64,000 nt of DNA from Leptogorgia sarmentosa (taxonomy: Eukaryota), in NCBI GenBank assembly GCA_964658305.1, contig OZ210885.1:25358001-25422000 (forward strand). The letters are read 5' to 3'. The stretch's first letter is position 1; each line of letters starts with the position of its first letter. The notes below the pieces were generated by a model that was not told the DNA's origin, did no database searches, and worked only from the letters and a program-made list of their open reading frames with translations. The position numbers were made by a program, and so were the translations under genes. Positions 22,793 through 64,000 of this stretch are shown piece after piece.

Positions 22793-23034
22793 GCAAACCT
22801 TCCATGACTGACCTTTGCTGTTTTTGGACAGCCATGAACAATTTACCACCCCGGAATGGTACTCTGCAGGTGAAATTCCAAGAGGATAACAGCCCTTTGC
22901 CTGTTGCTGAAACTTGTTTTTTTGCTATATCCCTCCCAACAGTCCATGAATCGTATGATGATTTCAAGAAATTTATGGACTTAGCTCTCACTCATGGTTC
23001 TCTGTGCATACATACATCATTCATAATTAGCTGA
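22793..23034 (+). pseudogene. Isolated terminal exon of a HECT ligase (C-lobe with catalytic Cys)
   Basis: DLCCFWTA...LPVAETCFFAISLPTVHESYDDFKKFMDLAL, collinear with 58099-58325. The AG acceptor at 22791-22792 has the same position and phase as in that copy. Confidence 0.8.
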
Positions 23035-23558: not shown

Positions 23559-23898
23559 TTTATGTTAGCGTGCTATAAGGACCGAAGTTCGAAAAGGCCA
23601 CTGGGACAGAAGCACATGGAATATTTAGTTTTGGTTTATGCATGGTTCGTCGAAGAATATAGGTTAAATGTTAATGTTATTTAGTCTTGAACGCTCATGG
23701 GACGGTGAAAATTCGTTCGGAACAGATGTGAGTTAAGTCAGTCTCTTTCAAATGTTTTTATACCAATAATTTTGCATGCTACATAATTAACAATCCGTAT
23801 ATTTGTATTACAGTTTCAGATTGTTTGCTTAATAAATACTGAAATTCCAAGCGTTTTCCTGTCTACTCATCTATGACACTTCTAACCACATCGGTCCA
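23559..23898 (+). repeat. BEL 5' LTR (first ~23 bp missing)
   Basis: Matches 29079-29418; I see one mismatch (23597 G vs 29117 C). Confidence 0.93.
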
Positions 23899-23970
23899 CT
23901 ATCTGAAAATCTTTGTTGGTGTTTAATGCAACTCGCTGAATGTGGTTTGAAGCTGTGTGTACTGTAAACA

Positions 23971-26900: not shown

Positions 26901-29015
26901 ATGAAATGGACGGCATTGTTCAATGAAATGTCTGCATTAAATCAAGTCCAATTCGAACGATGTCTGACACCACTGAATGTAGCAAGCGATCCATGGTTAG
27001 TCATATTTTGCGATGCGTCTCGGTTAGCGTTTGGTGCTTGTGCGTATATCAGGTGGCAACTCAACAACGGGGAATTCAGTGTTAGATTCGTGGCAGATAA
27101 ATCTCGCGTGGCGCCGCTGAAAGAGCTCACGATTCCTCGACTCGAATTACAGTCTGCCGTTTTAGCAAGTCGTTTAGCCAAAACCATTCTCGAAGAAACA
27201 CGTCTGAAGATTGTACGAACTATCTTCTTCTCGGACAGTCGTGTCGTAATTGCATGGATCCAGGGTCAGCCGAGATCTTACAAGCCTTTCGTGTCCTGTC
27301 GAATAAGTGAGATTCAGTCAAATTCGGATCCAGGCGACTGGTTTCATTGTCCTACAAAAGCCAATGTGGCAGATGACTTGACTAAAGGTATCTCAGCGAG
27401 TGAAGTTAATGGCAGATAGTTTAACGGACCAGAGTTCCTACGGCTACCCGAAGATCAATGGCCTACAGAAACTGGTTTACCTGACAAAAAAGAAGTAGAA
27501 AGAGAAAGAAGACAAGTCCAAATTGCATGCCCTGTCGCTGTCTGTAGTCCAGTGTTGGATGTCAAAAGAATCTCGACGTGGAAACGAGTAATAAGAGTTA
27601 CGAGTTATGTCAGAAGATTTGTCCAGAATTTGCAGATCAAGTGTACTCGAAGCGAGGAAAATCGCCAGCCAGAACGAGGCCCCCTCACTCGGCAAGAACT
27701 GGAGTCGGGGGAAGAATACTGGATAAAGCAGATGCAGTCAAGCATCCTAACAAGATTAAAAAAGGGTGATTTCAAAGCTCTTTCCCCCTACACTGACGAC
27801 AAAGGTATTCTAAGAGTTGGAGGTCGCGTCGACACATCACTGGTATCTTATGACAACAGAAACCCTGCGCTCCTACCATATGGTCACTACCTGTCCACCC
27901 TCATCGTACGTGACGTCCATGACGTTAGTCATTCAGGCATTGTGGCGACAATCGCGAAAGTCTGTGTAAAGTATTGGATACTCAAGGCACACAAGATTGC
28001 TAAGGTTATCAAACAACGATGCGTCAAGTGTCGAAGAATTGCAGCCAAAGCTGAAACCCAACTTATGGCTGTGTTCCCACCATGCCGTTTACAGCCACAT
28101 ACGCCGCCGTTCCTGTATTCTTCAATGGACTACTTTGGACCCATCAAAGTGAAAGTGGGCAGAAATAAAACTGTTAAACACTATGGTGTAGTATTCACAT
28201 GTCTAAACACCAGAGCGATTCATTGTGAACTTGCAGTCGATGCCAGCGCAATGGAGCTTCTACAAGTCCTGAGAAGATTCTTTTCGTATCGTGGCTTTCC
28301 GAAACTTCTTCTGTCTGATAATGGTACGCAAATGGTGGGAGCGGATAACGAACTGAAACTCATGATTCAAGGATGGGACGAAAGACAGCTAAAGGAATTT
28401 TGCGCAAACCGTCAGATTGAATGGAAGTTCATCACTCCCTTAGCTCCGCATCAGAACGGATGCTCCGAAGCAATGGTAAAGAGTATAAAGTACGCTCTGA
28501 AGAAAGCAATTGGCGACGCCGTACTAACACCGTTTGAGTTGTATACATGCCTATTTGAAGTCACGAACTTAGTCAATCAATGGCCAATAGGAAGAGTGCC
28601 AACAGATCCGGACGATGGAAGCTACCTGTGTCCAAACGATATCCTGTTGGGCAGAGCCACTAATACTATCCCTCAAGGCCTGTTCAGAGAAACCCGAAAC
28701 CCGCGCCACCGCTTTGAGTTTTGCCAGAAAATTGTTGATGCCTTTTGGAAGAAATGGTCGAGGGATGTTTTGCCACAGCTTACCCCAAGGAGAAAATGGA
28801 ACACCCAGCGTCGAAATGTGAAGGTTAACGACTTCGTTATTGTGTCAGACTCAAACGCCGTACGGGGCAAATGGAACACCGGAAGGATCGTAGAAGTTTT
28901 CCCAGGAGATGACAACTTAGTGAGAAATGTGAAAGTGAGAACGGCTACGGGAACCTACAGCCGCCCAATCAGCAAGATCTGTGTCATTTACCCGGCAGAA
29001 GGCTATGACGATTGA
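23971..29015 (+). pseudogene. BEL/Pao gag-pol polyprotein, broken into three ORFs
   Basis: LPKFDGD (DUF1759-like), three Cys/His knuckles, YDSGAQ protease, GDIAKMY..TYVDD RT, FCDAS..TIPRLEL Pao RNase H, and MDYFGP..SDNGTQ..NGCSE integrase. Frameshift near 26520, TAG at 27417-27419 and another frameshift before 27552. Confidence 0.92.
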
Positions 29016-29055
29016 CAATGTAGATAAATGGGAATTCTCCCATTGTGGCGGGGAA

Positions 29056-29418
29056 TGGTTTAATGTAAATAGTTGTACTTTATGTTAGCGTGCTATAAGG
29101 ACCGAAGTTCGAAAAGCCCACTGGGACAGAAGCACATGGAATATTTAGTTTTGGTTTATGCATGGTTCGTCGAAGAATATAGGTTAAATGTTAATGTTAT
29201 TTAGTCTTGAACGCTCATGGGACGGTGAAAATTCGTTCGGAACAGATGTGAGTTAAGTCAGTCTCTTTCAAATGTTTTTATACCAATAATTTTGCATGCT
29301 ACATAATTAACAATCCGTATATTTGTATTACAGTTTCAGATTGTTTGCTTAATAAATACTGAAATTCCAAGCGTTTTCCTGTCTACTCATCTATGACACT
29401 TCTAACCACATCGGTCCA
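29056..29418 (+). repeat. BEL 3' LTR
   Basis: TGG...CCA ends, follows GGCGGGGAA, and matches the 5' LTR. Confidence 0.9.
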
Positions 29419-31478
29419 TCTGACTTTGGTTGCACCTGATAACAATTAACCCTATGGTACAAGAATTTTAGTGCTAAATACACTGATAATCTAAATATCT
29501 ACTGTAGCCAAAGTCTGTTGATATAATTTGAATTATTTCCCAAATTATTTTTGTTCTGTATCAATTGTATTTGGATGTAATTAATTTTCATATCTAAAAA
29601 TACCTTATCAGTTTATGGTTTCCATCAATATGCCACAAACTTAGGGGGCTGTGAACTTTATATTTTCTCCTCCTTACAGCTTTGGCCCAACGGTCCATCA
29701 TACCAATGGGATCAGTCCTTATTAATGAATCCCTTATCCTGTCATGTTGCACCCGATGTCCTTTGCCCATAAGAAAGCCCTTTGTCAAGCGAATGCCAAG
29801 TTAGGATTCCTATTCTGTGCTTCCCTTACAAGTAGATCAAGCTGCTCATTACTAATGATGCTATAAGTAGCTGTAAAATTCAAGGGGGAAAATATATAAA
29901 TTATGGAAAAAACATAAATTAATTAGTGAAAATTATAGCAATAATTTGTGTGTAAAATATTTTAAAAACTAGGGAAACAATGCATTAAATTATAACAAAA
30001 TATTAAAATGGATAGTTGGTGTACATCATCACTGATATACAGTGACATAGTTGTGTTGTGTGCCATTTTCCACATATAATTGTGATATAATATTATGTAC
30101 TGGTACTTTAGCACATGTAGATTTATTAATCTACAGAACTGGACGAATAGACAATATTTTGTGGAAAATGGTTTATACATAACTTACCAGTAACACTTAA
30201 GCCAAATGATTGCATCCTACGTTCCAATGTTCTTTTGCCAACCCCCAACATGTTGCTCATTTCATTCACATTAAAAGCCTGCTCCAACAAAAAGTTTACT
30301 TGCTCTTCATTTATATCAAACGAAGGTTTTCCATGCCTGCCAGTATATATTTTTCTCTTTTTCTTTATATATATTTTTTCTGGAGGCAGGGGCGGATCAA
30401 GCTTGCGCGGGGCCCCTGGCACAAAGGTCACTGGGGCACTTGGCTGATTCCCCCCCCCCCCCGAAAAAGACTATGCATATAAAGATATCAGAGAAATTTT
30501 ATAACCAAAATAGTACTATTTACAAACAACGTTTCTGCAAAATATTTTACAAAAAAGGAACTTTTCGAGCCTTTGCAGAAGCAAAATCATTTGCCAGCTT
30601 TGAGAAGTCAAGCGAACGTAAAATGTCCGATTTCATACTCATCCGTGATAGAGCACTTAAGCGTGTTTGTCCCATCGTGCTACACGAAACGCTCTTTACG
30701 CGTTTTAGTTTCGAGAACGAGCGCTCCCCTGTGCAATTACTGACCGTCATGGTGAGATAGATCCTGAACGCAATTTCCACATTCGTGAAGGTTTCACTTA
30801 ATTCATTATTTTTGAGATTGAGGAACATCAATAGTTCAATGGACCTCTTCTTGTCTTCTTTTTACTTGACTCTGTGACGATTTCTATCGTCGACGTGGGA
30901 GTTACCGTCCCTAATTACACGAGACAGTAAAATGAAATATATCACAATAAACATAAAAGTTTAATACTATAACTACCTAAGTATAAATTAAATTGTCTAC
31001 AGTCGTTTCAACAAACCCGAGTTCACAGAGTGTACATCTTCTTTCTTCGGCTAGCCACAATACTTGCTTCCACGCGTAGTTTCTAACCCGAGACTCCTTG
31101 TTCAACGACAACCGTCAGGATTTCCTTCAGTAATTCTATTCAATTTCCAATTAATGGCCTCAGCAACTTTAACCTGGGCCAAGTTGGATAAATAACCCCG
31201 TCGCTTCTCTACTCCGACTTGTAATATAGTCTTCTCAATCTCTTTCGACAACGCCTTCAAGATTTCGTTCAGTAGTTTTACTCAGGGTTCGAGGTTAATT
31301 ACCTCAGCGACTATTTACGCTTCGTCACCTTTACTCAGTAATAACAACTTTACTTTTATTATTAGTCTTCTCGAGAGGAGTTACACTCTAACACTGCGTG
31401 ACCGAGTGTAAAGCATTTTATGTCTAAACTACATGATTAAATACACAGAACAACTATTAGGAGGCGGGCATCTCGTGT

Positions 31479-32735
31479 TTATGCCCGCCTTCTTCGACGC
31501 ACCAAGAAAGCTGAGTCGTGCTGCAAAGTATTTTTATTGTCACTTAAACAAATATACATCAACAATATCCAATTATCATGGAGGGCCTTCGATACTGACA
31601 ATAGGGAGTGCAAGTTATCTTTTACATAACCGTCCTTGGCTTTGTCCAATTTCCATCTCCCGTGACGTTTAAACAGGCGATCCCTAACGCCAGCGTTCGC
31701 TGCAGCCGTCGCACCACCGCTCCTTAGGCTATGTAGGCCGATATTCTTTACTGGATAACCAAGAGATGTAAAAGCTGCAAGAACTATCTCTCTGGCTCGA
31801 GAGTAAGAAAGCCCTGTGGAACGTAAAACGTACTTCTTTTTGGATTTACAGAAGTAAACCGACCTGAATAATGGTGCTGTAGAACTCAAGTCTATACTCG
31901 CTCCTTTAACATATCGAGACAGAATCGAAAAAGGACACGCCACATCCTTGGTTTCTGCCATCAGGACTGTATTCCCATGGTGATAAATGTCAGTCTTACT
32001 TTGCGTTATGCTCAAGGCGACAAAACGCTCGCCCTCAGCCGAAACGAAATTAACGTCGCAGCAACGCAAACTTGCCAGCTCATTAAAACGTAAGAATGCA
32101 TAGAAACCCACCACAAACAGTGCTGCAAGTCGCAGATCGGAAAGATTCGAATTTTCTGTCGCGTACTTTTCGCAAAGCTCGGTAAGCATCTGCAGGGTTA
32201 TTGGATCCTTCTTCCGAATTGGCTTTGCGAGTTTCCTTTTCGCAGCCTCCAACAAATTTCTTACGAACCCGGATCCGCACGGATTTGGGAACCCGTACAT
32301 GCTGTGTGCCCAATTTATACTGTAAAATGCGCTTTCCAGTTTTGAATAGGGACTGTTATTCTCAAGAAGATATTCTAGGTACAATCCTACGGTGCTTGAG
32401 TTTGCTGGTAACGCCGTTAACTGCCTGTATCTGGCTGTCCAAGTCTTAAACATCCCGAACCCTCTGGAATACTTAACGGTGCTGGGAACTTTAGCCTCAA
32501 TCAACCGCTTGGTCATATTGGCGGCAAGACACTGCAAATTTGCATCACACACATTTTTTGTCACGCTTGAAAGAAAAATTTTCCCCTGTAAATTTAAAAA
32601 TAAAAGAACAGTAAGCACGGCATTCAAAAGCTTAATCACGCTGGCAAATGAGCCTGTGCGTCTACAGCAAAATGAGCACTGGACTATTAAATTCGTCAGA
32701 ACCAAATAAGGACAACTTGTTGAGTCCGTGCTCAA
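31479..32735 (-). CDS. Tyrosine recombinase (true start probably near 32590-32520)
   Basis: Catalytic set present: FLRFNE (R), QSKTD (K), LHSLRSGGAT (HxxR), HGRW, DGY (Y). Confidence 0.9.
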   Translation of the reverse strand: MSTDSTSCPYLVLTNLIVQCSFCCRRTGSFASVIKLLNAVLTVLLFLNLQGKIFLSSVTKNVCDANLQCLAANMTKRLIEAKVPSTVKYSRGFGMFKTWTARYRQLTALPANSSTVGLYLEYLLENNSPYSKLESAFYSINWAHSMYGFPNPCGSGFVRNLLEAAKRKLAKPIRKKDPITLQMLTELCEKYATENSNLSDLRLAALFVVGFYAFLRFNELASLRCCDVNFVSAEGERFVALSITQSKTDIYHHGNTVLMAETKDVACPFSILSRYVKGASIDLSSTAPLFRSVYFCKSKKKYVLRSTGLSYSRAREIVLAAFTSLGYPVKNIGLHSLRSGGATAAANAGVRDRLFKRHGRWKLDKAKDGYVKDNLHSLLSVSKALHDNWILLMYICLSDNKNTLQHDSAFLVRRRRRA

Positions 32736-34551
32736 ACACGTCCTTCCCGTCTTCTATATAAACATAGTCTGCTACGAAATCCCGAAAATTCCCGTCGCTG
32801 GTGGTAAGAAAAGGCCAAAATACGGCTGAAGGCCAGAATGGTACAGTCAACATGGCACGACACCCGGAGAAGCAAACATGCTTCACAGCCTTTGGGATTA
32901 ATTTTATGGGAGGAACCAGCCAACAAAATTCACCAAACCAGTTATAAGCAAAACAGTCAGTCCCTAATGAAAAAGGGGTAAACCATTTTGAATAAAATCT
33001 CCTTGTTTTGGCATTCTGACCGCTAGCGAGACAATCGATCGAACAGATGCCCCACTGGGCCTGAGCTAATTGGAAGTATTTTCCTTTAACGCACCAGTCG
33101 TCAGGATCTATGATCTTACTAAGATAATCCGCTGTGTCGTTAAGATCCCGTGGGATCCATTCAATATCAACCTCAATGTTATTATCTTTAGCGTGATAAA
33201 AAATATCCAGCGCGAGCTGATGCAAAGGTAATTTCATGCTGCCCGAATTAACGATCGACACAACAGCTTGGTTGTCGGTATACCATTTCACGCTATGGTT
33301 TCGTAAACTGGGAGCAAGGCTCCTTAACGCGTCTCTAATACACAACAGTTCTCTCCAGGTGGAGCTTTGTTTCCTTTCCAACTCATTCCAATTCCTGTGA
33401 AAAACTGGGGCATCGTCTAGGGATATAAATGCGGCGCAACCTGTGTCGCTTGCATCTGAGCACATGACCCGTGTGAATAAGGAGGGTGTCGGTTGTAGGG
33501 CACGAGAGTTTAGTTTTCCAGCAGAATTTTCCCAGAATGTGAGTTCCCTAATCGATTCCGCATTTAATGTCAAAAACGAATCCCAACTGCGTCTGGAATT
33601 AATCTGGGCATGGAGGGATCTGGTCATAAGTTTGCATGTCACACCAAACACCGTTAAGTTCGAGATAATTAAGCCCGTCACTGAAGCCAGCTGCCTGGCT
33701 TTCACCCTCCGCAGGGCTAGCGTTTTCGTAACAGTCTCTGACACTTTGAGGATTTTACTCAGGGGAACTGAAAGGGTCTGCAATTTTAAATTCCAGTCTA
33801 AACCAAGCCAAGTTAAACATTGAGTGGGAATCCAATTACACTTCTCTACACTGGCGACAAAGCCACTACTTTCGATATCGGCTCTCACACGGGATGCTTG
33901 CGTCAAACAAGACGAAAACGACTGCGAAGCGCCTAAACCGTCATCCAAATACACTACTATTTTGTATGCCATAGCTCGCCAGTGCCTAACCAATGGTCTC
34001 ACCACTTTGGTAAAAATGTAAGGAGCAGTGGCTAAGCCGAAAGGCAATACGGTGAATTTGTAATATTTGATGCCGCTTTTCACCTCCCATGAAAAACCTA
34101 AGAACTGCTGATCAGCCGGGAAAATATCGATATGATGATAAGCTGACTTAATGTCAAATGAAAACAAAAAATTTTGTTGGCTGTCTTGTAATGTAGTTAT
34201 CATTTCCTGTACCCCCTCGAATCGAAACTTAATTTTTTTCAGGAAACTGTTTGGGTAACGAAGATCTAAAATCAGCCTCTTCTTGCCGGATGACTGAATG
34301 GCGACCGATAAGGGGTTCACCACCGTGGGTGGTGACGAGCACTGCGCAATCGCTCCGGCTATAAATAGGTCTCTTACCGCGCTGTCCACAAACACACGAT
34401 TTTCAAAGGCTGATCTATTATTCCGAAAACACATCTGTGGTGGCGTAGTAAGGAGAGGAATGATATACCCTCTCGAAATGGTATCAACGACGAACTGGGA
34501 GGCGCCAATGTCCTTCCAGAACTGTACATGAGCGCGTAATCGCCCTTTCAC
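32662..34551 (-). CDS. Reverse transcriptase / RNase H / adenine-methyltransferase-like polyprotein
   Basis: RLILDLR, FDIKSAYHH, LPFGLATAP, YLDD; SDASDTG, STWREL, YTDNQ, ADYLS; C-terminal IDCLAS..NAK..RFYS..DCF..NW..WLVPP..VPFWPS. Uninterrupted 629-aa ORF. Confidence 0.93.
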   Translation of the reverse strand: MKGRLRAHVQFWKDIGASQFVVDTISRGYIIPLLTTPPQMCFRNNRSAFENRVFVDSAVRDLFIAGAIAQCSSPPTVVNPLSVAIQSSGKKRLILDLRYPNSFLKKIKFRFEGVQEMITTLQDSQQNFLFSFDIKSAYHHIDIFPADQQFLGFSWEVKSGIKYYKFTVLPFGLATAPYIFTKVVRPLVRHWRAMAYKIVVYLDDGLGASQSFSSCLTQASRVRADIESSGFVASVEKCNWIPTQCLTWLGLDWNLKLQTLSVPLSKILKVSETVTKTLALRRVKARQLASVTGLIISNLTVFGVTCKLMTRSLHAQINSRRSWDSFLTLNAESIRELTFWENSAGKLNSRALQPTPSLFTRVMCSDASDTGCAAFISLDDAPVFHRNWNELERKQSSTWRELLCIRDALRSLAPSLRNHSVKWYTDNQAVVSIVNSGSMKLPLHQLALDIFYHAKDNNIEVDIEWIPRDLNDTADYLSKIIDPDDWCVKGKYFQLAQAQWGICSIDCLASGQNAKTRRFYSKWFTPFSLGTDCFAYNWFGEFCWLVPPIKLIPKAVKHVCFSGCRAMLTVPFWPSAVFWPFLTTSDGNFRDFVADYVYIEDGKDVFEHGLNKLSLFGSDEFNSPVLILL

Positions 34552-34639
34552 GCTTGGGCACTCTGAGCTCTCTACATATGAGAGTAAGAGCTTTCTATAG
34601 CATGCTCGGCAGTCTCTACGTTATCAGATAAAACACACA

Positions 34640-49500: not shown

Positions 49501-52500
49501 GGGGAATTGTTTTTCAAAAGAATTTGTGCTGCATTGATGTGGTTGTCATTCAATAATTTCCCTTCAGCAAGATCAGCTTTAACATCTAACGCACTCGAAC
49601 AATCGCATGCAATATGTTTTTTGGAGGGTGTAGCTCTGTTGGAGAGGGGTCAGGCTGCTTCGTTTTCTCGTCCAGCCGGGTTCCGATGAACTCCATTCTG
49701 CGCAGCTGTGTTCTAGGTAGGAGATCCTTTAAGCCATCCCAGCATCCCGACTTGACTCACCTCAATGATGCCGAGAATTCACCTCTCCATAAAAACAGAG
49801 CTACCGTCACACCATAGGTGGAGACGAACATACGTATGACTGGCCGAAAAACAATACCAGAAATTCTTACCTGATCAACCAGCCACTTGTGGCACATAGC
49901 AAGCAAACACCAACCACTTACCGAATTACCAGCAAACTCTGACACCAATGTAGACTAATCACCCAGACTAGCCAGGGAGCACACCCGACAAGCGGGTGCG
50001 GCAATCTACACAACAAATACACGAGCAGACCGAGCTGGTACAACATGACAGACTACAACTAGCCCCCTAACACCCGGGACACAAGATAACGACACATAGA
50101 ACAGACAGGCACGGCACTGCACAGTACGGCACAAACAATACTACAGGACAACACGCAAGGACAAGCAGACGAACAATAACAAGTCTGGGATCGGGTGCGT
50201 ACCGGGCCCCATCGGCAGGCAGCCGAGTAGCTGTGACAAGACCCCCCGGCAAGCATCCAGAGACAGTGGTCGTCCTGCATGCAGCAAGCAAGCTGCAACG
50301 ACATGCGACCACCAGAGTTCGGCAGCGCCTGCAACTCTAACAGCCAACCCGTGCAGACAAGCAGCCTGGCGACACCGGCAAGCAGCCGGGCAATTTCCAG
50401 CAAGCAGCTGGCGCAACCCAAAAAAAAAAACCCCTAAGGCCTACTACCCACCACCCTCAGGGCTGGGAGGGAGGGGAGAACTCAAACGCACGGTGTGAGC
50501 AGCAATAAGCAACTGAGCCCCGCACACGCAACTCTAACCAGCATACAAGACCTCCCTTCTGATAGGCCTAAACGCCTGCCTACGCAGCCGCATATGTGCA
50601 TAATTACATATCATTACCAACCCACAACAACTCGTGCTTGATGTTAATTAATTTTATTGCATAAACACATTTAACATCTAACGCACTCGAACAATCGCAT
50701 GCAATATGTTTTTTGGAGGGTGTAGCTCTGTTGGAAAGGGGTCAGGCTGCTTCGTTTTCTCGTCAAGCCGGGTTTTGATGAACTCCATTCTGCGCAGCTG
50801 TGTTCTAGGTAGGAGATCCTTTAAGCCATCCCAGCATCCCGCCTAGACTCACCTCAATGATGCCGAGAATTCACCTCCCCAATGCCATCCTCCAGCGAAG
50901 CTGGAGAAAGACCTCACACTATGTGCCACGCCGTCTGGAGAATAACTTGGGGCGGAGTCTGGAGCGGACAGCGCGGAGTGAAGGACGTTCATCAACCGAT
51001 TGGTGACAGGAATACGTGTTAACGCCGGCGACGATCGAGAGCGGCGGATGCCACGAAAAGTCTGGCCAATCTGGTAGCCCCGCGGGTGGGATCTGGAGCT
51101 CCAAAGTCAATGTGCCATGAACGAACTGCAGCAATATAAGATGAAACCGACGATGGAGCTAAGTTCCGCGATTGGGCCAGCCAAGTCGCAAATAACATTA
51201 ATAACCACTCAGAGGACAGGAAATACGGCAAGGATAACGACAAACAAAACTGGAAGTAGGCACATTGACCAGCAGCATACACACGACGAGTGGAGGGCGC
51301 TAGACCCTGGGCCAAAAAGCCAAAACACTGGTCAATTAATAGGGTGGTACCTGACTCGATAATAGCGACGGAAGGATTGAGAGAGGGAGTTGATCGGACT
51401 GAGGAGCCATACGACGGAACTCCTGTAGGCGCAAACAAGACAAGGCATCAGCAGCAGAATTATCTCGGCCAGGGGTGTGGGCAGCTGTGAACACGAAATT
51501 ATGGTGGCAGGCCTGAAGCGTGAGCAACCGCAACAAATGCATAACGTCTGGCGACCGGGACGTGCCAGGATTCAGCACACTCACAACGGCCATATTATCA
51601 CAGAAAAACTGCACGCGAAGGCGAAACCACACAGGCCCCCACAAATGCGCTGCGACGACGATGGGGACTAATTCCAGGAAAGCAATGGACATGTGTGAGG
51701 GGAGAAAAAACCATGAGCTGCTAAACCAGTGAGTGCGCCAGAAGGCACCAAAACCGCACGAACCGGATGCGTCGGATGACACAACCAAATCAGGTAAGGG
51801 GGTAACCGAGGGAGACAGGAAAAAGGACAACCCATTCCACTCTTGGAAGAATGACAGCCACCAATGCAGATCCCGCCGAAATTCCGCATTTAAACGAATG
51901 GGGTGGTCGCGATGACAAAAACAGCACAACAAATCAATCATGCGGAGGAACGTACGCCCAGGAATAACAACGTGACAGGCATGATGCAGGGACCCAATCA
52001 AGGACTCCAAGTCACACCGAGAGCACGTCTTCTTTCGAGACCAAGATTGGAGCAGTCTGAGGATACGATCCACTTTATCCCGCGGCAACAGCGCGAACTG
52101 CTGCACCGAATCCCACTCAATACCAAGAAAATACTAACACCGAGGATGGACCTTCACACTTTTGCAAATGCAACGGCAGCCCATTGGGTGAATTGGCGGG
52201 CCCCATTGTCAAGAAATCGTCCAAGTAATGGAACAACGGGCTGACGGCATAATTATGCACCAAGATCCAGTCGACGGCGTCAGCCACTGAATTGAAAATA
52301 AACCTGCCATACGCTGTTCCAATAACTCGGTAGAGAGATACGCGTCCACTACGTCCGGGTGATCCGATGCCGATCGCATATTGGACGACCGCGAACGTAA
52401 CGAAACCCGACCAGGCTCCCAACCAACCCGGAACCCATACCAAATCCTGTCCAAAACATAGTGCTTTTTTGCCGGACGATACGCCTCCAATTCGCGAGTA

Positions 52501-54326
52501 AATTCCGCTAGAACCAGAGGGGTTACAGTAGCAACAGGAGAGTTGATGTCCTGAGGACTACGGCCTAAACAAACAAAACAATAGCGAAAACACAACATGG
52601 CCCCCATCCCATGTGAATGCATGCAGTAATTACCATAACACTGAGCACAGTGCCGTAACGAAAACATGTAATCTAAGACATTATACGTATGCAACAACTG
52701 TACAGTACCCAGCAGGTACAAAGTTATGAAACACACTAGTCCCAGGCATTAACAATGCCCGTAACACACAGTGTCCCCCGCGACCCCAATAACATGCACG
52801 GGCCTGAAGCCCCTAATGTTGAACACTCGAATTAAGAGCATGTAACTCTTTTTCTTTTTGTACATGTGCCCGCAATAGCGGTCCCAGACGTCGCAAGCAA
52901 ACCCGTCCCAATGCAGGCCTAACAGTCACGTGGACGAGGGAAGGGGGCTGTCGATGGAGGAGGACCGACTGGCCCTGTTGGAGCAAGGAGGGGACCAGCA
53001 GGCGCACCCGATGACTGGATAGGGCAATGAATATGACGATGACCGGTGCGACACCGAGGCACATCGCAGACATGAAGATACCGACACACGGCACGAGACG
53101 CTACGCACCAGCCTAAGTTCCACGAACGACAGATCGTGGTGCCAAACTGGGCCCCAGCACTCTCGCGGGAAAGAGGTCCTGACGACGTTGGCACTACCCG
53201 GGATGTGGAGGCCGTGTGGAAGTTGTACAACTCCACATGCATGCCGGACCAGTCGACAACACGGCGCGCCGCGGCGTCACGGCGTCACGGCGAAATACCT
53301 CATCGTAGTTGTACCAGGCTAAACCGCCAAACTGCGAGTGCGTGCGTAAAATTAGCAGCTGGTATCGAATCAGGTCAGCTGCCCGATGTGGCGCATACGT
53401 AACCATGACAAGCATATAAATAGCAAACGCTTGTAACCACTGAGCAATATCAGTCAAACGTCGCGGCGGCTTGGGAGCTGTGGAAACCACAACCTGCCCA
53501 TCAACGCAGATCAAGGGGGAGGTCAACCGAACTTCCGAGGGCTTCGCTAGCAAGGTAGCCAAGTCAATATACTGACCCGATACAATGTTTGACACCATCT
53601 TATCCGGGATGGGCAAAAACCCAGGGCCAACCACAAACGAAGCAGGCTGCGAACGCGCCGAAGGCAACAACATACCTGGTACAGGAACCCCAGCAGCAAG
53701 GGGATTGATCAATGGGTTGGCCAGCGGCGACGGGTCACGAGAGCAGCCCTGACTGGGTGCCAACAACAGCGACGAGGGCAACCCCGGAGCAGCCTGGAGT
53801 CTTGCAACTGACGCCAACTCTCGACCGCGAGCCTGCACCTGGGCACAGCATTAGCATGTGCTTGGGCAGACGCCTGCAACATCGCTTGGGCCTGAAGGGT
53901 AGCCTGCGCCTGAGCCCGTTCTTGAGCCATCGCCTCCTGGAGGATGGGATCTTGGCAAGTGGACGCCTGCTGAAGGATGGTATTTTCTGGCAGAGCAGGC
54001 ATCGTGACATGAGAGGAAACTGGGGGGAAACAAAATGGCGGCAGAACTGCGGACAACGAAGACGAAAAAGAAGGCCTCAAATTCAACACATTTGGCAGGC
54101 TTATCGCCGAAGTTGCAATGGGAGGCACTCCACCAGACGTAGGCCAAGGATTCGGCGGCTGATAGGGGATCGGCAGCCACGTATGCGATTCTAAACTCCG
54201 ACCAGACGACGGCCCTGAAGTAGCCGTAAGGGACGAAGACCACGCACTAGAAGCGGTAGAACTCGATGGCACTAACACAGGGAGCGGCGACGTAGAAACA
54301 GCAGCCATACTGGACGGCGAAAGCGC

Positions 54327-54674
54327 TATGACGTTATATATCCGCCAAAATTCAAGTTCTTATTTGACATGCCAGTTTTTGTATTTTACATAATGGTCAA
54401 AATATTTATATTCGACATTTAACATTTTTTAATTCGACATTCGACATTTTTAAATTCGACATTCAACTTTCTTAAATTCGACATTCAACTTTCTTAAATT
54501 CGACATTCAACTTTTTTAAATTCGACATTCAACATTTTTTGAATTCGACATTCAACTTTCTTAAATTCGACATTCAACATTTTTAAATTCGACATTCAAC
54601 TATCTTAAATTCGACATTCAACATTCGAAAATCCAACCGCAATCCAATTCTAACTATGTAACGCTGGCTCAAAT
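54327..54674 (+). repeat. Left TIR with ~22-bp tandem subrepeats (AAATTCGACATTCAACTTTCTT)
   Basis: Reverse complement of 63221-63583. Confidence 0.95.
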
Positions 54675-54788
54675 TGAGACGGAGGGCAGGCCACTGGGGC
54701 AGGCTAACAAGAGCGTGGCTACACTGAAACCACAAAATTATACTATTATTTTTTTGATATTAGAAAGCAATGTTAAATTGAATACAAA

Positions 54789-57373
54789 ATGGAAAGTGCA
54801 GCGTATTTAAGAGATATAATATTTGATGTTATCAATGCAATCGAGGTGTTCGAAAATTCTGGAGCCCGTTCATCAGATTTGCAACGTTCAATCACGAAAT
54901 TAGATTATGTTCAACGAATGGCAGTTAACCTGGAAATGGATGAATCCATTATTTCATTGATTGGACAGGCATACAGAATGCTTGAACAAATAGACGACAA
55001 CGATTCAATCCAAAATACGTACAGAGCGTCTTTGAATGAAGGGCAACAACGCGGGAGGCCTTCATATAATATAAGTGAAGAACAGCTCTCATTCTTGCTT
55101 GAGAAGGGATTTCAAGTGAAGGATATAAGTGCTATTCTCGGAGTGAGTAGTCGTACTGTTGACAGGCGTATGTCAGCTTTTGGATTAAGTGTGTCAGGTA
55201 CATAACATAAGGCTATTATTTTGTCAAGTAAGATTATATACAAAATACAAATTAAGATTAACTCAAACCAAGATTTGAAAGATAAAATTTACATGTCCTT
55301 GCACCTCCCCCCCCCCCCCCCCAGGACTTACACCCCTGTCCATCGTTCAAAATCCAATGGTTCACAGAGGTTAACCCAATTAAACCACCATGTCCCCAAA
55401 TGCACCCTACTTCGTATTTTTAGACAAGTCCTCAAGAGGAAAGTCTTGTGTTTCAAGGGGTTAAACACTTGGTAGTTACTCAGTAATAGTGACTTTTTAA
55501 CATGATAGTGAGTAACATGATCCAGTACCTGCTTTTCTTCATGACATACCGTAAATGTTAATTATTAAGAAGTGTATTTCAATATTAATAATTAAAAAGG
55601 GATGTACAGTACCATTGGTGATGAACGACTAGATGAACTTGTAGCCACTGCTACAATGCAACATCCAGCATGGGGGATAAGAATGGTGAAAGGTTACCTA
55701 ACAAGCATGGGGATAAGAGTCCAGTGGAATCGGGTAAGGCGGTCATTGCTACGCACAGATCCTGTTGGTCTAATGCAGAGATGGACAAGAATGATCAAAA
55801 GAAGAGAATACCGAGTAAAGTATCCACTATCTTTGTGGCACATTGATGGCCATCACAAGTTGATAAGGTAAATTATTATTTATATTTTGTATACAAATTA
55901 GAGTACAATTACATTCCCACAAGCCAAACTAACTAGTTCAAGACCCCGTTAATTGGTAGGTAGTGTGCTTATGTTCCCCACTTTATATTTATACTCTAGC
56001 TAATTGTCAGACAATTTTGTATGTCAATGTGGAAGGCTTGTTCACATACTGAATTACAAATGTTAATATGCATATTCATTGTTTTACTTATTTACTTTGA
56101 ACACTTTCTACTATGTTACTAGGTGGCGAATTGTGACCCATGGGGCCATAGATGGATACTCTAGACTTCCAGTGTATCTCAAAGCATCTAGCAATAATAA
56201 AGCAGAGACGGTCTTTCAATGTTTTCAGCAAGCTGTTCGTGAATACGGATTACCATCTAGGGTTAGGTCAGACAAAGGTGGGGAAAATGTACAAGTTTCT
56301 GCCTACATGCTCAACCAACGAGGTACTGGTAGAGGAAGCATGATAACAGGTGATTTTTTTCATGTTATTGCAGCAGAGTATTTTTCTGAAAAGGGTTCTT
56401 CACTTATTCTCATTAACGCATCAACTTGGATTGCATTGCCATTGCGCCGCATGTGCGCAATTGTCAAAGAAGGTTTTGCAACTTGATATGTTAAATGGCA
56501 ATGTGTGTTTATTGACCTCACATGATACTTGTTAAGGGGAATATTTTGTGCATTAAATGTGGTAAAAAAAAATGGTTATAGATATTTCTAACATAAAGTA
56601 TGCACAGGTACCAGATAGATATTTATTAAGCAACACACTGTGGTTTTAGTTATGAGATGGCATGTATTGTAACTATTAGAAATAAATTGTTAGATAGTTA
56701 TTCTAAGGTACATTTAATAAGAACATGTTCTTACTGTTGCAGGAAAGAGTACACATAATCAACATATAGAACGGTTATGGCGTGATGTATTTGGTGGATG
56801 CATTAGCTTTTTTTATGACTTGTTCTATCATTTGGAAAACCAGCTCACATTGGATCCAAATGAAGAAGCTCATTTATGGTGCCTCCACTACGTATTCCTG
56901 GATATAATTAACCAACACCTTAGGAATTGGCAAAATGCTTATATATATCACCCATTAAGTTCTGAGAATAATAGAACCCCAATGCAACTATGGGTGCAAG
57001 GTCTCCATCAAGCAAGAGGATCTGGTCGTGCTGAAGATATGGATTTTCAGGTGAGGATTGATGCTCATTTTTAGGTAATATCAGTAAAATTATTATTTCC
57101 ATGTACAAACTAAATGCCACATAAGTATATTTTTTATGTATTTTGTAAAATTTGATTCGCATGTTAATACTGTAGAGTGATCCCAATTATTATGGTGTTG
57201 ACTGGGCTGGACCAGTTCCTGAAACTGAACCTGATACCGTGGAAGTTCCAGATACGCATTGCCCCTTTACCAATGAACAACTTAGACAGTTGCCACAAAC
57301 AAATGGTATTACATATCTTGATGGTATGCAAATTTATGAACAAATACTTGCTATGTTACCATTGATGTATTAA
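54789..57373 (+). CDS. IS3/integrase-type DDE transposase, 5 exons, ~469 aa
   Basis: Exons 54789-55197, 55600-55867, 56123-56349, 56743-57050 and 57176-57373, all GT-AG, 1410 nt, no stops. HTH ISAILGVSSRTVDRRM; triad WHID, RVRSD, STHNQHIERLWRDV (D-34-E). Confidence 0.92.
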
Positions 57374-57630
57374 ATTGCAAATATGAAATATTGTAAACAA
57401 ATAGGGTCATCTTACAAAACTTTAACTTGTAACTACTGTAAGAAAGAGCAAGCTCTCATAAGGTTAAAGTGCACCTGACCCCAACATTTTTAGTTGTCTT
57501 AAGGCCTGTTCATGTGATCCAATTTTGTCAAATTCAATTGTGTTGGGTCCAATAATTAATCGCATGAACACCCTTATATTTTGTCGGATCCACTATTTTT
57601 GTTCCAGTGAACGTGCAAGGAAATTTACCT

Positions 57631-57830
57631 TTACAGCAGTTTCACGTGATTTGCGACCCCCATCATAAACGTTCGCTGATGTAATGTTTGTTTTTGACAT
57701 GCGGCATCAACTGATGTAATATAAAGTGTTAGTTGGTAGCCCTGCACCAATGTCAAAAACAAACATTACTTCAGCGAACTTTTGTGAACTTTTGTGTTGG
57801 GGGGTCGCGAATCACGTGAAACTGCTGTAA
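57631..57830. repeat. Inverted repeat / MITE between the convergent 3' ends
   Basis: TTACAGCAGTTTCACGTGATTTGCGACCCCC ... GGGGGTCGCGAATCACGTGAAACTGCTGTAA. Confidence 0.8.
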
Positions 57831-58098
57831 GGGTGTTCATTACCACACTTTAACATAAATAAAACTTTTGACACCTATGGAACTAAAACGGAGCTCCAAT
57901 TAGAATATGGCAATTCCAGGTGCTAATATTTGCAGGTTACTGTTGAGGGCGTTGAACTAGTGTTACAACATTTCTAAGGACAAGTGATATTTTGCTATCA
58001 TGTTTCTCAATCATCCAACTGAACAAAACATCAAAAAACTAGTCTGTTACTTGACAGAACGTTTAACAAAAATAGAATTCAAAGGCACAGATCTGATT

Positions 58099-61000
58099 CT
58101 ATGAGAATTCGAACCCTTTTCCTCCGTACATGAGGGCGATATCCATATACTTTCTGAAATCTTCATATTTCTGGTATCTAGTTGGAATTGTAATACCCAT
58201 GAAGCAGGTTTCTGCCATTGGCAGCTTGCACTCTGCATCAAATTTGGCCAATAGAAGCTCGTTATTATATCCAAGTGAAGTTCCTGCTGTCCAAAAACTG
58301 ACCAGGTCAACCAACTTGGTACAACCTAAAAAATATTAAACAGAATAAATTGTGGAAAGATGAGGAGGGACACTAACATGTTGGTGAGGTATATGTAAGG
58401 TGTCATGGAATAGTTAACAAAAAATCAATTGTCAGTTTGCTTTACCTGTTGCTCTAAGCTCTATTTCTTTAATGCAGCTAACAAGAAATTCAGCTGTCCT
58501 CTTGTTTTCTTCACGTGCTTCTTTATTTTCAAACACCAGTACGTCCAATACTGTTGTTGCAAGAATATTTCTCTCATCATCGGTAGGGAACACTACGTTC
58601 TTTAGTAACAGCACTCGCTTAAGAAATGATGTTAAAGAAACCTCTTCCATACCTGTAGGACATTCAATTTATTAAATTAATTAAGAATATATCGCAAGTA
58701 CATGAATAGGGAATAAACTTACTGTACACACAATTTCCACGAAAAATTTTGCTTTTATTTCTTTATTAACATCGTTTTTACATTCTTGTTTGGCTTGTCA
58801 GGCATAAAATATATTCCTACAATTAAGAGAAAAACAAAAAAATATATACCTTTTGCCAACTCTTCTAACTCATGTCGCCTTTTGTCAAGGACATGATACA
58901 TCATAAGGCTGTCGATAGTGATCTTCCTTTCGGAATTCAACTCATCCGGATCCAAACCAGCTTCCAACAAGTACGGTTCTAACGCGCTTTTCAACTCAGC
59001 ATCAACTGCTTTGTCAATTGGCAAGCTATCCAACTATATTAGATAAAAACGGTTGTATAATCATAACTTATAGCTAATCACAACTTATAGCTAATCACAC
59101 ACCAAATCAACCTGTATTAGACTTAATAAAATTTATATTATTTTAAAAAAGAAGTGGAGCATTTATTACCGTTGCTATCATATTTCTCAGCTCTAGGTCA
59201 GGCAAATCTTCAAGGGTAAGAGGTAATGACTGTGTCTCTGCTGCACTCTTGTCAGTTGCCATGTAACACTTTACTGCCGGTGATACACCATGCAAACCAG
59301 GACCACCGTGAAGTATTGAGTGTCCTAGCATTTTTCCAAGAGCTTTAAACATACCGGTTAATCTTAAAGACTGATTATGGACAGGGACGCGATGATCCTT
59401 TTGGCCTTCGAAAAATAATATTTTTTTAGAACCTGATGAAGACACGCCCTCATCTAAAATGTTCATGGCGATCGATAGATATTCTCGAACTGGTCCACTA
59501 CCAACCGCGTCTTCTTCAAAGCGAACTTTCACACCAACTCTTAAATTTGTTTTTGGGTTCTTGTAAACGCCGATCACCTCCTTCTCTAGTTCGTCAATTC
59601 CATCAAGCCTGCTGACAAATATTCTTTGCTGAGGTTTGTCCTGGATTATATTTTCCTTTCTAAATAGCTCTAAAGCAGCTTTAGGAGAATCGATTTCAGT
59701 GACGTCTTCAAAGGGAGAACGAAGTAACTGATCATCATTGACATTGTTTGACCATTCATCATCTACATTAATTACATCTAGTAAAAGAATAAACAAAACA
59801 AAAAGTGAAGTCATTATATATTCAGTGTATATTTTGTTTGCTCTCAATAATTTCTTACGGTTAGCTTAACGGTAGTGCAACCCCTAACAGCAAGAATTTG
59901 GCTCTGTTCTGAAATTATACCGGCATCATGTGTATACGGAGTATGTGATGGATTGTTTTGATTATAAATTTTCCAGATGATAATATTTATTAATCTAACA
60001 TGATTCATTAAATGAGTATTTAACAGCTGCATCATTCAAGATTGCAACTTCAGCAGATAAAATTGGAACCTATTGAGATGTAATTGTTTTACAAAGATTT
60101 ACATACAACTTACACCTTGCTCATATACTTACGTCTTACCTGGTAAAAGATTTTCAACAGCTTCTGCAACATCTCCATTTGCAGAAGACAATGCATTCTG
60201 GATATCTCTAGTAGTTGCATCAGGTACAATCTCTTGTATTATGGTTTCTGACAAACTAAATAAACATATTCAACAAACCATAAGACATACTGTACCAATA
60301 ATTATAATACCTAAAACAGTCTCAGGGCACTACAATATTATGCCGCATTACTTAAGTCTGCATTTTCCATTTAAACAGATTTCAAAAGATATTACAGTAC
60401 TTATAATGGCAATGAGGACGTACCAATTTGCATACAGTACGAACACCATTGTCTGACCACCTTGTAAAGAGTTAAGAAATAAACTTTGTGATCTTAAAGA
60501 AAAAGTCTATAATGTTATTGTGCGTACCTATCATGTCTTGTACTTTCTTCAACGGTAGTTTGTCTTTGCTATACGACTCAGAAGAAATATCAAATATAAA
60601 GTTGAGTTTTAAATTATACATAGCGTCTATGAGTATATAACACATCTCTCATAGCTCAACCTCGTACCCATGCCACAGAGTAAATAATAGATACAGAGGT
60701 CGAACTAACCGTTGTAAACACTGCGGAAGATTACATTTTCATGTACCCACCTTTTTTAAACGCCAACGGTAAAAAAATACACCATACGCATCCCAGGCAT
60801 GACATATCAGTTGTCAATATACTATATATGTTTTTTTTAGGATCAGTTGTCAATATACTATATATGTTTTTTTTAGGAAAACATATATAGTATATTGACA
60901 ACTGATACGTCATGCCTGGGATGCCTATGGTTACGCGAGCAGTTTCATCCAATGGGATGCATGCATTTAGTAACTTGCCGAGCATGCACACGAAAAAAGT

Positions 61001-63192
61001 GGGTACAATAGTTCGACCTGTGTATCAATCTCGTTCCCCGAGCCTGCGATCATTGGGAAGGAAACGAAGGCTCTGGGATAATCCGTTTCAGGAAGGAATC
61101 TGATTGGTCGTTGGAATGGCATGCGTAATTCAAATCGACATACAATTTTCTGTATGTCTGATTCGGATTATCCCAGAGCCTTCGTTTCCTTTCCCAAGGA
61201 TCGCAGGCTCGGGGAATGAGATTGTCTCTGTATCTATTATTTACTCTGTGCCCAGGCTCTTCGCTCTTGTGGAGTAACCTGGGTTTCTCAAAGCTACAGT
61301 ATAAAGAACAGGTTGCAATAGTATACGCGATTTGAATATGACTGTTATTTTTAGAAAACAAGTTGTTACTTCTTCATTATTTTTTTATGAATCATGTCCA
61401 AGCTTTAAACAATATCAGTAGTACACTGCAAACCATGAAGCATGTGTGTACACCAATTTTCTAACTAATATGACAGTATCATACCTTATTAGAACCTCCA
61501 GTATTATGAGTTTCTGTATGCTCCCTTATGCTGCTAAAGGGAATTTCAGCATTGCAAACAAAGCACTTCAGAACAGGTTCAGTAACCTTTAATTAAAAAT
61601 GTAATTTCAGTTTTAGTTCACAATCCGCATGGTGAGCAATGTCAGCCTTAAAGAATTTTATCTGGTTATATCTATTAAGTTGCAAGACACTCCCCTTCAT
61701 GTATAAAATCGTTTAGCAGTACTTATGCTATGTAAGTACATTGACATTTAATTGTGGGTGCAATGAGATGTAACAGGTTAATATGTATTATGGTAATTGA
61801 TGATCCGATAACAGTGGACTTAGCCAGCACTTGAAATATACCCTTCCAAAGGGTGTCAAAATAATGAGACTTGACACTTCCAGAAAATTATCGAGAACAG
61901 ACATTATGATATTTTTAAACATTTTGTATCCTCAATTAGAGTGCACATAGCAACAGGTTCCATTGCTTCAATCTATTATAAGTTTTTAGCTGATAAAGTC
62001 ATTGAAAAGTTACAAAACACAGGATTTTTATCTGTCTAGTTTTACAAATACCCATCCAACAAGCTGGTGGACAGACCTCTGGCTATGCCCATGTCATATA
62101 CAGAACTATGAAGTAAGAATATTGTTATTAAATGTATAGAAAAATGAAATACCTGACTTGAGTCATGAGCACCTAAATGACCTTGTTCATTTTCTTCAAC
62201 ATTTTCAGCTGTTAATCCCAAAGGTATATCTCTCTGCACTGGCCGTAAATACACCTTCGCTTGACCACACAAAGCTTTAAGTCTGCCAGCTGTGTGTGGC
62301 CCATTTACCACATGGAAACCACCATCCAATCCACCACCCCTTTGGTAAAGAAGGAAATCGAACCCTCCTACCTCTGAAAGTTGTGGATAGTTTTCCACAA
62401 TTGTATCATAGATAGGTTCCCCATTGTCAATTAATGCAATGGATTTGTCACCAAGGCATGCGTTTGATAGGTCCGTTCTTTCCTTTATATTCTGTGGTGG
62501 CCGTTCTGCATCTTTTGATGCAAGGCAAACAAATTTTATAGTACATGTCTGTGCTTTCTTCCTTTTCAATTGTCTGGATTTGGAACTAGATGAACTTGAT
62601 CGTTTTCCAAAATTGAACAACCTGCGTTGTTCAGCAATTACCGATACATTGTGATTTTGTGAACGTAAGTTAGAGGAAGTGCCACTTGTTAAGGGAGTTG
62701 AAACTCCCACTTGTTGTGGGGTCTGAATAGGAGACTGTACAGGCACAGGCATTACTTGTTGAACATTTGGGGCAGGAGAACCTACGGAAAAGAAATTAGC
62801 AAAAAAAGTTAACAAAAAAAATAAACATATTCTATTTTATTTTCATATATGTTTTATTTTCACTATATAGTGAATTCTTTGTATGTGAACATTCAGGCTG
62901 TATTTACCCTTATTTAGTCCCTTATATTCATTCACAATCGCGAACCAGAAAAGTGTTAGATATTCAGTTAGTTTCAAAATGTAAAGGATTTGTTTTACAT
63001 AACGGACTTGACATGGTCTTTCAAGATTCAAATATATTGATTGATATAATCAGAATAGTGCATTATACAAATACAATACATAATAAACTCACCACTATTC
63101 TGAGACTGTTCCCAGTTCGAAATTCGATTCGCAAGCATGTATAGCGTGTCTTTGACTTCGTTCATTTCTGCAGCACGTCGATTGGATGCCAT
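58099..63192 (-). CDS. HECT-type E3 ubiquitin ligase (G2E3-like HECT), 9 exons, ~737 aa
   Basis: Exons 63192-63093, 62781-62153, 61586-61485, 60568-60528, 60255-60140, 59777-59170, 59033-58850, 58652-58446 and 58325-58099: GT-AG, phase-compatible, 2214 nt, no stops. CFVC-x11-H-x3-H finger, CUE-like IQEIVPDATTRDIQNALSSANGDVAEAVENLL, VRFEEDAVGSGPVREYL, GKMLGHSILHGGPG, FWTA, LPMAETCF. The small exons are manual predictions. Confidence 0.85.
61026..61224. mobile_element. Short MITE in a HECT-gene intron
   Basis: ~60-bp TIR CAATCTCGTTCCCCGAGCCTGCGATC / GATCGCAGGCTCGGGGAATGAGATTG. Confidence 0.85.
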
Positions 63193-63220
63193 TACCGCAA
63201 ATTTGCAAACACGTGCGTCT

Positions 63221-63583
63221 ATTTGAGCCAGCGTTACATAGTTAGAATTGGATTGCGGTTGGATTTTCGAATGTTGAATTTCGAATTCAAAAAAGTTGAA
63301 CGTCGAATTTAAGATAGTTGAATGTCGAATTTAAAAATGTTGAATGTCGAATTTAAGAAAGTTGAATGTCGAATTCAAAAAATGTTGAATGTCGAATTTA
63401 AAAAAGTTGAATGTCGAATTTAAGAAAGTTGAATGTCGAATTTAAAAATGTCGAATTTAAGAAAGTTGAATGTCGAATTAAAAAATGTTAAATGTCGAAT
63501 ATAAATATATTGACCATTATGTAAAATACAAAAACTGGGATGTCAAATAAGAACTTGAATTTTGGCGGATATATAACGTCATA
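63221..63583 (-). repeat. Right TIR of the IS3EU-like element
   Basis: Reverse complement of 54327-54674, with a slightly different subrepeat array. Confidence 0.95.
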
Positions 63584-64000
63584 AAGCACCAAGTCAGCCC
63601 CAGAAGGACCCACACTCGTTGTCGAAAGCGAAGATGAAGCCGGAGACAAATCATCGCTCGTAACCGGAGGAAACGAAAAATCCGTGCCCGGGAGACTTGC
63701 TAGGCTGTTATTGGTAAGCCGAGGCATAGATAACAACGAGCACAGTACCCTTAAGATACCAGACACTCAAGCAACAAAAAAAAAATTTTTTTAACAGTTC
63801 CAGACAAACCCAAGAAAGAGAACTCAAACGCACCGTGTGAGCAGCAATAAGCAACTGAGCCCCGCACACGCAACTCTAACCAGCATACAAGACCTCCCTT
63901 CTGATAGGCATAAACGCCTGCCTACGCAGCCGCATATGTGCATAATTACATATCATTACCGACCCACAACAACTTGTGCTTGATGTTAATTAATTTTATT

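Follow-up and report, generated by a model that had tools for sequence, protein, structure and literature searches.

The window analyzed here, a 64,000-nucleotide stretch of Leptogorgia sarmentosa DNA (assembly GCA_964658305.1, contig OZ210885.1, positions 25,358,001 to 25,422,000), contains a DNA transposon which by its sequence is a member of the IS3EU/GingerRoot superfamily. Besides its transposase gene the element carries, inside the same terminal inverted repeats (TIRs) and in convergent orientation, a 737-aa gene for a predicted HECT ubiquitin ligase with a bilobal domain and catalytic Cys. Comparison with related loci indicates that the ligase is very probably a standing, selected second gene of the transposon lineage and not a one-off host capture.

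Structure of the element and its two genes

The element spans positions 54327 to 63583 (9,257 bp) with the termini TATGAC..GTCATA. Its TIRs are identical at 337 of 344 aligned bases, and about 10 copies of a 22-bp subterminal repeat are found in the left one (54397-54625). The flanking target-site duplication (TSD) matches at five of six bases, with a single CG>CA change (AAGCGC / AAGCAC). A contig of sequencing run X1 fuses position 54325 with 63589 and omits 9,263 bases (9,257 + 6); this gives a TSD length of 6 bp and shows that paralogous copies with the empty site exist. The contig stems from an empty paralogue of the host retroelement (16 differences), which does not imply the same allele, and its depth in run X1 was about four times that of the inserted element. 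The element disrupts an open reading frame (ORF) of this other repeat, the frame of which is restored on removal of the element together with one copy of the TSD. The host repeat (49578-64000) contains split direct repeats in the order A-B-A-B (63818-64000 = 50476-50658; 50670-50881 = 49578-49789), from which we take it to be a likely Ngaro-type tyrosine-recombinase retrotransposon. Its ORF pieces had no Pfam match.

The transposase gene consists of five predicted exons, every intron being GT-AG, and encodes 469 aa without a stop codon. A first model with the acceptor at 55610 was discarded because of a frameshift. The DDE triad is formed by D219 (55845), D276 (56271) and E311 (56769). In Pfam, PF24764 (rva_4) matched on three exons and PF00665 was found as well, while helix-turn-helix (HTH) models matched exon 1. 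The protein is colinear with the octocoral protein P0006 (76% identity over 454 aa, 2 gaps), and the closest named relatives of the element's proteins are from octocorals and stony corals. As in IS3EU/GingerRoot transposases, an IS3-like DDE core and an upstream HTH are present, HHCC is absent and the first D lies 100-300 aa from the start (D219). TA..TA (TAY..RTA) ends and a 6-bp TSD define these elements (PMC10045372; this and the further citations refer to the parts searched of each paper, unless stated otherwise). The core resembles IS3EU-1_CVi, IS3EU-1_SK and IS3EU-3_CGi in the supplementary alignment of the same paper, a motif match by eye only.

The ligase gene was assembled from nine predicted exons. 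With a 49-nt micro-exon the product of 737 aa is stop-free, its last codon and TAG being located at 58099-58104. An alternative micro-exon of 37 nt, which leads to 733 aa, fits equally well. A model without micro-exon was discarded because of a frameshift. PF00632 matched the last exon with 28.2 bits (cut-off 23.9), and the N-lobe exons, searched exon by exon, had no Pfam match. The whole ligase aligned to the family profile A4, built from full-length relatives, at 4.6e-74 over positions 8-442 of 445. Profile A4 in turn aligned both lobes and the catalytic Cys to HECT structures of the NEDD4/E6AP type (best E-value 5e-29), its catalytic-Cys column falling on the HTC Cys of WWP1. In total, 74 PDB sequences matched at E≤0.001, and the 60 listed were all HECT ligases.

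Upstream of the HECT region lies a conserved 120-aa N-terminal domain common to the TIR-bounded relatives. Its AlphaFold model reached a predicted local distance difference test score of 90.2. The structure matches listed were beta-grasp folds, the best being UFM1 with a middling Z of 7.1 (root-mean-square deviation 2.7, 82 aligned), and Foldseek gave no match at E≤0.001. PHD/RING fingers (zf-HC5HC2H) had no match on any ligase exon.

A preliminary description of the window had claimed ~350-bp TIRs with TAT..ATA ends, a 6-bp TSD with one CpG-type change, a fit to the IS3EU group by these ends, the TSD and an IS3-like transposase, and two stop-free spliced genes of 469 and 737 aa with the DDE triad and the HECT Cys in LPMAETCF. 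All of this is borne out by the data above and in Table 1. Of the domains it suggested for the ligase, the HECT domain was found above the Pfam cut-off, whereas CUE and UBZ were found only below it.

Table 1. Features of the IS3EU/GingerRoot element and its flanks (positions in the window)
Feature	Position	Strand	Remarks
Left TSD	54321..54326	.	AAGCGC
Right TSD	63584..63589	.	AAGCAC
Left TIR	54327..54677	+	351 bp, begins TATGAC
Right TIR	63218..63583	-	366 bp
IS3EU transposase gene, 469 aa	54789..57373	+	exons 54789-55197, 55600-55867, 56123-56349, 56743-57050, 57176-57373
Predicted HECT ligase gene, 737 aa	58099..63192	-	9 exons
Ligase exons 1-5	63192-63093, 62781-62153, 61586-61485, 60576-60528 (or 60460-60424), 60247-60140	-	
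Ligase exons 6-9	59777-59170, 59033-58850, 58652-58446, 58325-58099	-	
HECT C-lobe exon	58099..58325	-	Cys703 at 58204-58206 in LPMAETCF; C-terminal GFEFS; PF00632 E 1.9e-6
HECT N-lobe exons	58446..59777	-	56% to P0002; family profile aligns over both lobes
CUE-like ubiquitin-binding helix bundle	60140..60247	-	PF02845 E 5e-4, 20.1 bits, just below cut-off 21.1
C2H2 finger, UBZ-like	61485..61586	-	weak: zf_C2HC_14 E 0.016, zf_UBZ E 0.16
Conserved 120-aa N-terminal domain without Pfam name	62207..62566	-	predicted beta-grasp (ubiquitin-like) fold with extra helix
Palindromic insert between the 3' ends of both genes, presumably like a miniature inverted-repeat transposable element	57627..57834	.	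from self-comparison; label inferred
Nested high-copy palindromic inserts in ligase-gene intron	60674..61250	.	contig depth 8,430 vs about 100 elsewhere, run X1

The pairing in related loci

To gain insight into the generality of the pairing we fetched 100 loci with an alignment of 38 transposases. Excluding 52 with short flank, 48 loci with at least 2 kb downstream were kept. The scan patterns were biased to one of the two sub-lineages of IS3EU that can be discerned in the supplement of PMC10045372. A convergent HECT gene was located just past the transposase in 29 of the 48 loci, and a HECT gene on the same strand within 6 kb in none. Among the 28 loci with 5 kb on either side, 15 were convergent, 4 had another arrangement and 9 carried no HECT. 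TAT..ATA TIRs together with a 6-bp TSD were found in 12 loci. Six of these (L008, L013, L016, L019, L061 and L083, from three assemblies) are complete elements of 6.6-7.5 kb with both genes, three of 2.8-4.6 kb retain the HECT 3' end only and three of 1.7-4.2 kb are without HECT.

The reverse test was made in five assemblies deposited under prokaryote names (see below), where 13 of 26 HECT clusters were located within 8 kb of such a transposase. When only large contigs were considered, 8 of 15 HECT clusters were near a transposase, with 1.2 expected. Conversely, a HECT gene was present within 8 kb of 11 of the 19 transposase clusters in these assemblies. The viral contigs searched contained no relatives.

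Several loci are from records deposited as genomes of prokaryotes; the presence of introns in them points to contigs of the host animal. Loci L081-L100 lie on eukaryote-like contigs with introns, up to 2.5 Mb long, in records with bacterial or archaeal titles and likely represent host contamination. The ORFs downstream of the HECT-less loci revealed no common alternative second gene. In the single case of L041 (2665-4475, minus strand) an AAA ATPase ORF (PF00004, E 6e-16) was found convergent in the place of the HECT. In the AT-rich and possibly fungal loci L024, L038 and L049, HECT-like ORFs of very high divergence were located upstream of the transposase; Pfam gave no support for the one ORF of this set that was searched.

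Selection and co-inheritance

The catalytic Cys was retained in 34 of 36 aligned C-lobes. Ratios of non-synonymous to synonymous substitution rates (dN/dS) were determined for 12 pairs from ORF-level alignments, in which some intron codons may be included. Synonymous sites were saturated in 7 pairs, where dN was 0.19-0.57, and two further pairs gave 0.06 and 0.23. Additionally, transposase and HECT distances correlated across 28 dereplicated elements (rho 0.39, p 0.0005), and both gene trees had 6 of 25 splits in common, with 0.27 expected by chance.

The proposal in the preliminary description that the ligase is a dedicated second gene is thus in agreement with the convergent genes of the related loci, their PF00632 matches and the dN/dS values. 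Three outcomes that it had named as refuting were not observed: Pfam gave a HECT match above the cut-off, a HECT gene is present in the majority of the related loci whose flank was long enough, and the dN/dS values between subfamilies lie far below 1 instead of near it, which shows purifying selection between subfamilies. Selection acts on the active lineages and not on inserted copies, following the usual pattern in which a gene is kept during transposition and decays after insertion.

A number of results weigh against a dedicated gene that follows its transposase. Nineteen of the 48 loci were without convergent HECT and 13 of the 26 HECT clusters without a transposase within 8 kb; some unlinked genes had the same beta-grasp-HECT architecture with no transposase in 20 kb. 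Both genes were arranged divergently in L084 (2431-10969) and L088 (3022-10531) and in tandem in L139 (3039-15034) and L097 (9896-14422), the boundaries of these four being unplaced. Few hosts were sampled, since many loci have one accession prefix. Furthermore, the C- and N-lobe HECT profiles were built from these same loci. Therefore, an independent Pfam check was made, in which PF00632 matched 24 of 35 convergent C-lobe ORFs (E≤0.01), 18 of them above the cut-off. Three near-identical pairs had dN/dS of 0.6-1.4, and the window copy differs from its sisters in a neutral manner (see below). In the trees 19 of 25 splits were unshared, only 2 were shared at a support of 0.9 or more, and some reassortment between transposase and HECT is evident. 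Divergence was also higher in the HECT (median p-distance 0.74) than in the transposase (0.56), and relatives of the HECT vary at the N-terminus (fn3, Neuralized, SAM, CARD-caspase); because of both, changing host targets would fit as well. Finally, co-inheritance can arise from physical linkage whatever the substrate.

HECT proteins annotated with fn3, CARD-caspase, UBX, Neuralized or SAM N-termini were P0128-P0133, P0153, P0157, P0162 and P0198. These proteins could be cases of exaptation by the host or fused gene models. A match to UBX, a p97-binding domain, was present in 2 of 52 long HECT relatives.

State of the window copy

The element had initially been described as intact. This holds for the reading frames, both of which are open, and not for the substitutions relative to sister contigs, which are mostly non-synonymous. 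In the ligase region (58090-60620) the 37 listed differences comprise 19 non-synonymous, 4 synonymous and 14 intronic ones; relative to 1,078 and 299 sites, respectively, the coding changes follow a neutral pattern. In the transposase, residue 309 is H where the family alignment has an invariant R. This R-to-H change, two residues before E311, casts doubt on the mobility of the window copy. H309 was also found in run X1 and was absent from X6 and X13. The transposase ORF extends 3 codons beyond a stop which is present at 57363 in the three covering runs. At least 20 runs (6 studies, at least four organisms) contained half or more of the element's sequence words, and a 6,210-bp contig in run X13 covered both genes. 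Judged from these comparisons the window copy is a drifting, open-framed one, and present-day mobility is not implied.

Proposed function of the ligase

We infer, at just short of an even chance, that the main substrate is the element's own transposase complex. In the process envisaged, the transposase would bind the 22-bp subterminal repeats, cut the ends and join them with a 6-bp stagger. The ligase would load ubiquitin from a host E2 onto Cys703, the CUE and UBZ modules would hold ubiquitin and the N-terminal beta-grasp region would locate the substrate. A transposase marked in this way would be removed from the product complex by host p97/proteasome, or limited in its level. The own transposase was ranked first because the ligase partly tracks it, unlike the shuffling fungal TET/JBP cargo, and because fungal IS3EU elements have a kinase in the corresponding position and 2 of the 52 relatives carry UBX.

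Alternatively, the ligase could be a dedicated anti-silencing or anti-defence factor which degrades host repressors of the piRNA pathway, DNA methylation or chromatin. Every line of evidence for a dedicated gene applies equally to this explanation, and the faster divergence of the HECT as well as the relatives with swapped N-terminal modules speak in its favour. The TSD and the coding sequence of the window copy show CG>CA/TG changes, which suggest methylation, and fungal IS3EU elements capture TET/JBP genes for which a role against methylation was proposed (PMC12730594). However, these fungal anti-silencing genes cluster independently of transposon superfamily and shuffle across superfamilies (PMC12730594), whereas the HECT here partly tracks its own transposase. 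Moreover, the N-terminal variety was seen in proteins known without their genomic context, some of which may be fused gene models, and neither a host target nor a target-binding motif was found. Host silencing factors come a close second to the own transposase as the substrate.

UBZ and CUE are ubiquitin readers common in repair proteins, and weak matches to both are present in the ligase. A dedicated ligase might thus recruit the DNA repair of the host to excision or insertion sites, or redirect it there, through ubiquitylation of chromatin or of proteins involved in repair, and the fungal IS3EU element Styx is thought to need host repair for donor-site restoration (PMC10853768). As both matches lie below the Pfam cut-offs and the exon-wise Pfam search detected no DNA- or histone-binding domain in the ligase protein, we regard this as improbable. 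Least probable by far is passive cargo, i.e. a captured host ligase gene carried without benefit. Fragments of host genes are indeed found in plant GingerRoot elements (PMC6839031), sister copies drift neutrally and half of the HECT clusters have no transposase nearby. Yet slot and orientation are the same even though the transposases differ at a median of 56% of sites, the Cys is nearly always kept and dN stays at the values given above where dS is saturated. Since unselected cargo would not keep its frame over such distances, this explanation is largely refuted.

Relationship to G2E3

The named HECT relatives were mostly annotated as 'G2/M phase-specific E3 ubiquitin-protein ligase-like'. 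A profile search over 50% clusters returned 9,223 proteins at E≤0.001, ordinary HECTs included. True G2E3 with PHD fingers accounted for seven among the 120 matches listed, and zf-HC5HC2H fingers were present in P0356 and P0383. In an Atlas structure search with the relative P0002 the G2E3 cluster was the best named host ligase (score 975; NEDD4 556). The HECT of shark G2E3 was 47-54% identical to stand-alone fish members. In a quick unrooted tree of 81 rows, true G2E3 and a stand-alone fish HECT formed a clade inside a 99/99 clade. Under midpoint rooting, with no outgroup in the tree, this 99/99 clade nests among transposase-linked lineages.

It is conceivable, though somewhat doubtful, that the thousands of 'G2E3-like' HECT genes of coral, sponge, mollusc, hemichordate and fish are largely IS3EU genes and that the vertebrate G2E3 HECT is a domesticated piece of one; domestication of G2E3 from a transposon ligase as such is plausible. 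Speaking against this origin, G2E3 is only about 20-38% identical to transposase-linked HECTs (the window ligase only 21% to shark G2E3), and the members nearest to G2E3 are known as proteins only, without genomic context. G2E3 was reported to appear only after the chordate/echinoderm split (PMC2837046), and G2E3-like HECTs have been treated as host genes and as GL-Metazoa class IV HECT ligases (PMC3673628, PMC2837046). The term 'transpos' does not occur in the searched parts of either paper. Like the transposon ligases, G2E3 has a highly divergent HECT (PMC3673628, PMC2837046). In contrast, PHD/RING fingers are present in true G2E3, the HECT of which was reported to be non-functional, and the window ligase is without PHD. 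If the proposed origin is true, a transposon-borne ubiquitin ligase became a host cell-cycle gene. Many gene calls of the type 'G2/M phase-specific E3 ligase-like', and claimed HECT expansions in marine animals and fish, may be transposon genes.

Other repeats in the window

A decayed second element of the same kind consists of a HECT C-lobe (Pfam E 7.8e-7) with the Cys retained and facing transposase exon fragments (22771-23031, plus strand; 29600-30332, minus strand), the latter being 57-61% identical to the main transposase. Between its genes a long terminal repeat (LTR) retrotransposon is inserted (23559-29418), with 340-bp LTRs of 99.7% identity, matches to DUF1759, protease, rve and DUF5641 and an ORF in pieces; we take it to be BEL/Pao-like. 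Three more G2E3-like HECT relics were found at 2107-3270 (minus strand, with a CUE match), 7467-7796 (minus strand) and 10774-11478 (plus strand), with no transposase of the IS3EU family detected beside them. A DIRS-like retroelement (31482-34620, minus strand) carries a 652-aa reverse transcriptase/RNase H ORF, overlapping a 424-aa ORF that resembles a tyrosine recombinase and has no Pfam match. The regions 8823-10416 and 11982-14023 contain a Tc1-like element (~230-bp TIRs, 315-aa DDE_3 ORF) and a broken hAT-like transposase.

Comparison with known systems

IS3EU/GingerRoot elements have been reported from corals (PMC6839031), and the ancestral IS3EU element was described as encoding two proteins (PMC10853768), while structure and function of the group were termed largely unexplored (PMC11934779). 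The catalytic mechanism of HECT ligases has been described (PMC9547173). In the searched parts of the IS3EU/GingerRoot and fungal papers (PMC10045372, PMC6839031, PMC10853768, PMC12730594) 'HECT' and 'ubiquitin' are absent. There is likewise no mention of HECT in the part searched of bioRxiv 10.1101/2021.09.26.461848, and 'HECT' is absent from the main text of the coelacanth paper PMC4255032. Our literature search found no paper on an IS3EU-HECT pairing; Repbase and the 2019 Kojima review were outside this search and may name the second protein. The superfamily and its two-protein coding are therefore known, and the HECT identity and generality of the second gene were not found in print. As a predicted HECT ligase, the second IS3EU protein, so far without a name, acquires a biochemical role that can be tested. 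The retention of a complete E3 gene by one lineage in sponge-like, cnidarian and further hosts raises the question whether transposons ubiquitylate themselves or host defences.

Links between mobile elements and a control of transposition by ubiquitin-like or proteolytic systems exist elsewhere as well. Zisupton/KDZ transposons carry SUMO-protease or F-box domains, and the phage Mu transpososome is cleared by ClpX. These systems have other transposases, and their domains are fused or host-supplied, whereas the window element carries a separate complete E3 gene.

With IS3EU/GingerRoot elements the window element shares TA..TA ends, a 6-bp TSD, an IS3-like DDE core without HHCC and a second gene. 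Its TIRs of ~350 bp are longer than those of plant GingerRoot elements (100-150 bp), and its ends are TATGA where its relatives have TATGG. The fungal TET+ IS3EU elements are similar in that the transposase lies opposite a second gene for a protein-modifying enzyme, with TAYGG..CCRTA ends and a 6-bp TSD (PMC12730594). In the fungal elements, however, the second gene is an alpha-kinase and a TET/JBP gene lies between (PMC12730594), whereas the window element has a beta-grasp-CUE-HECT ligase in this place.

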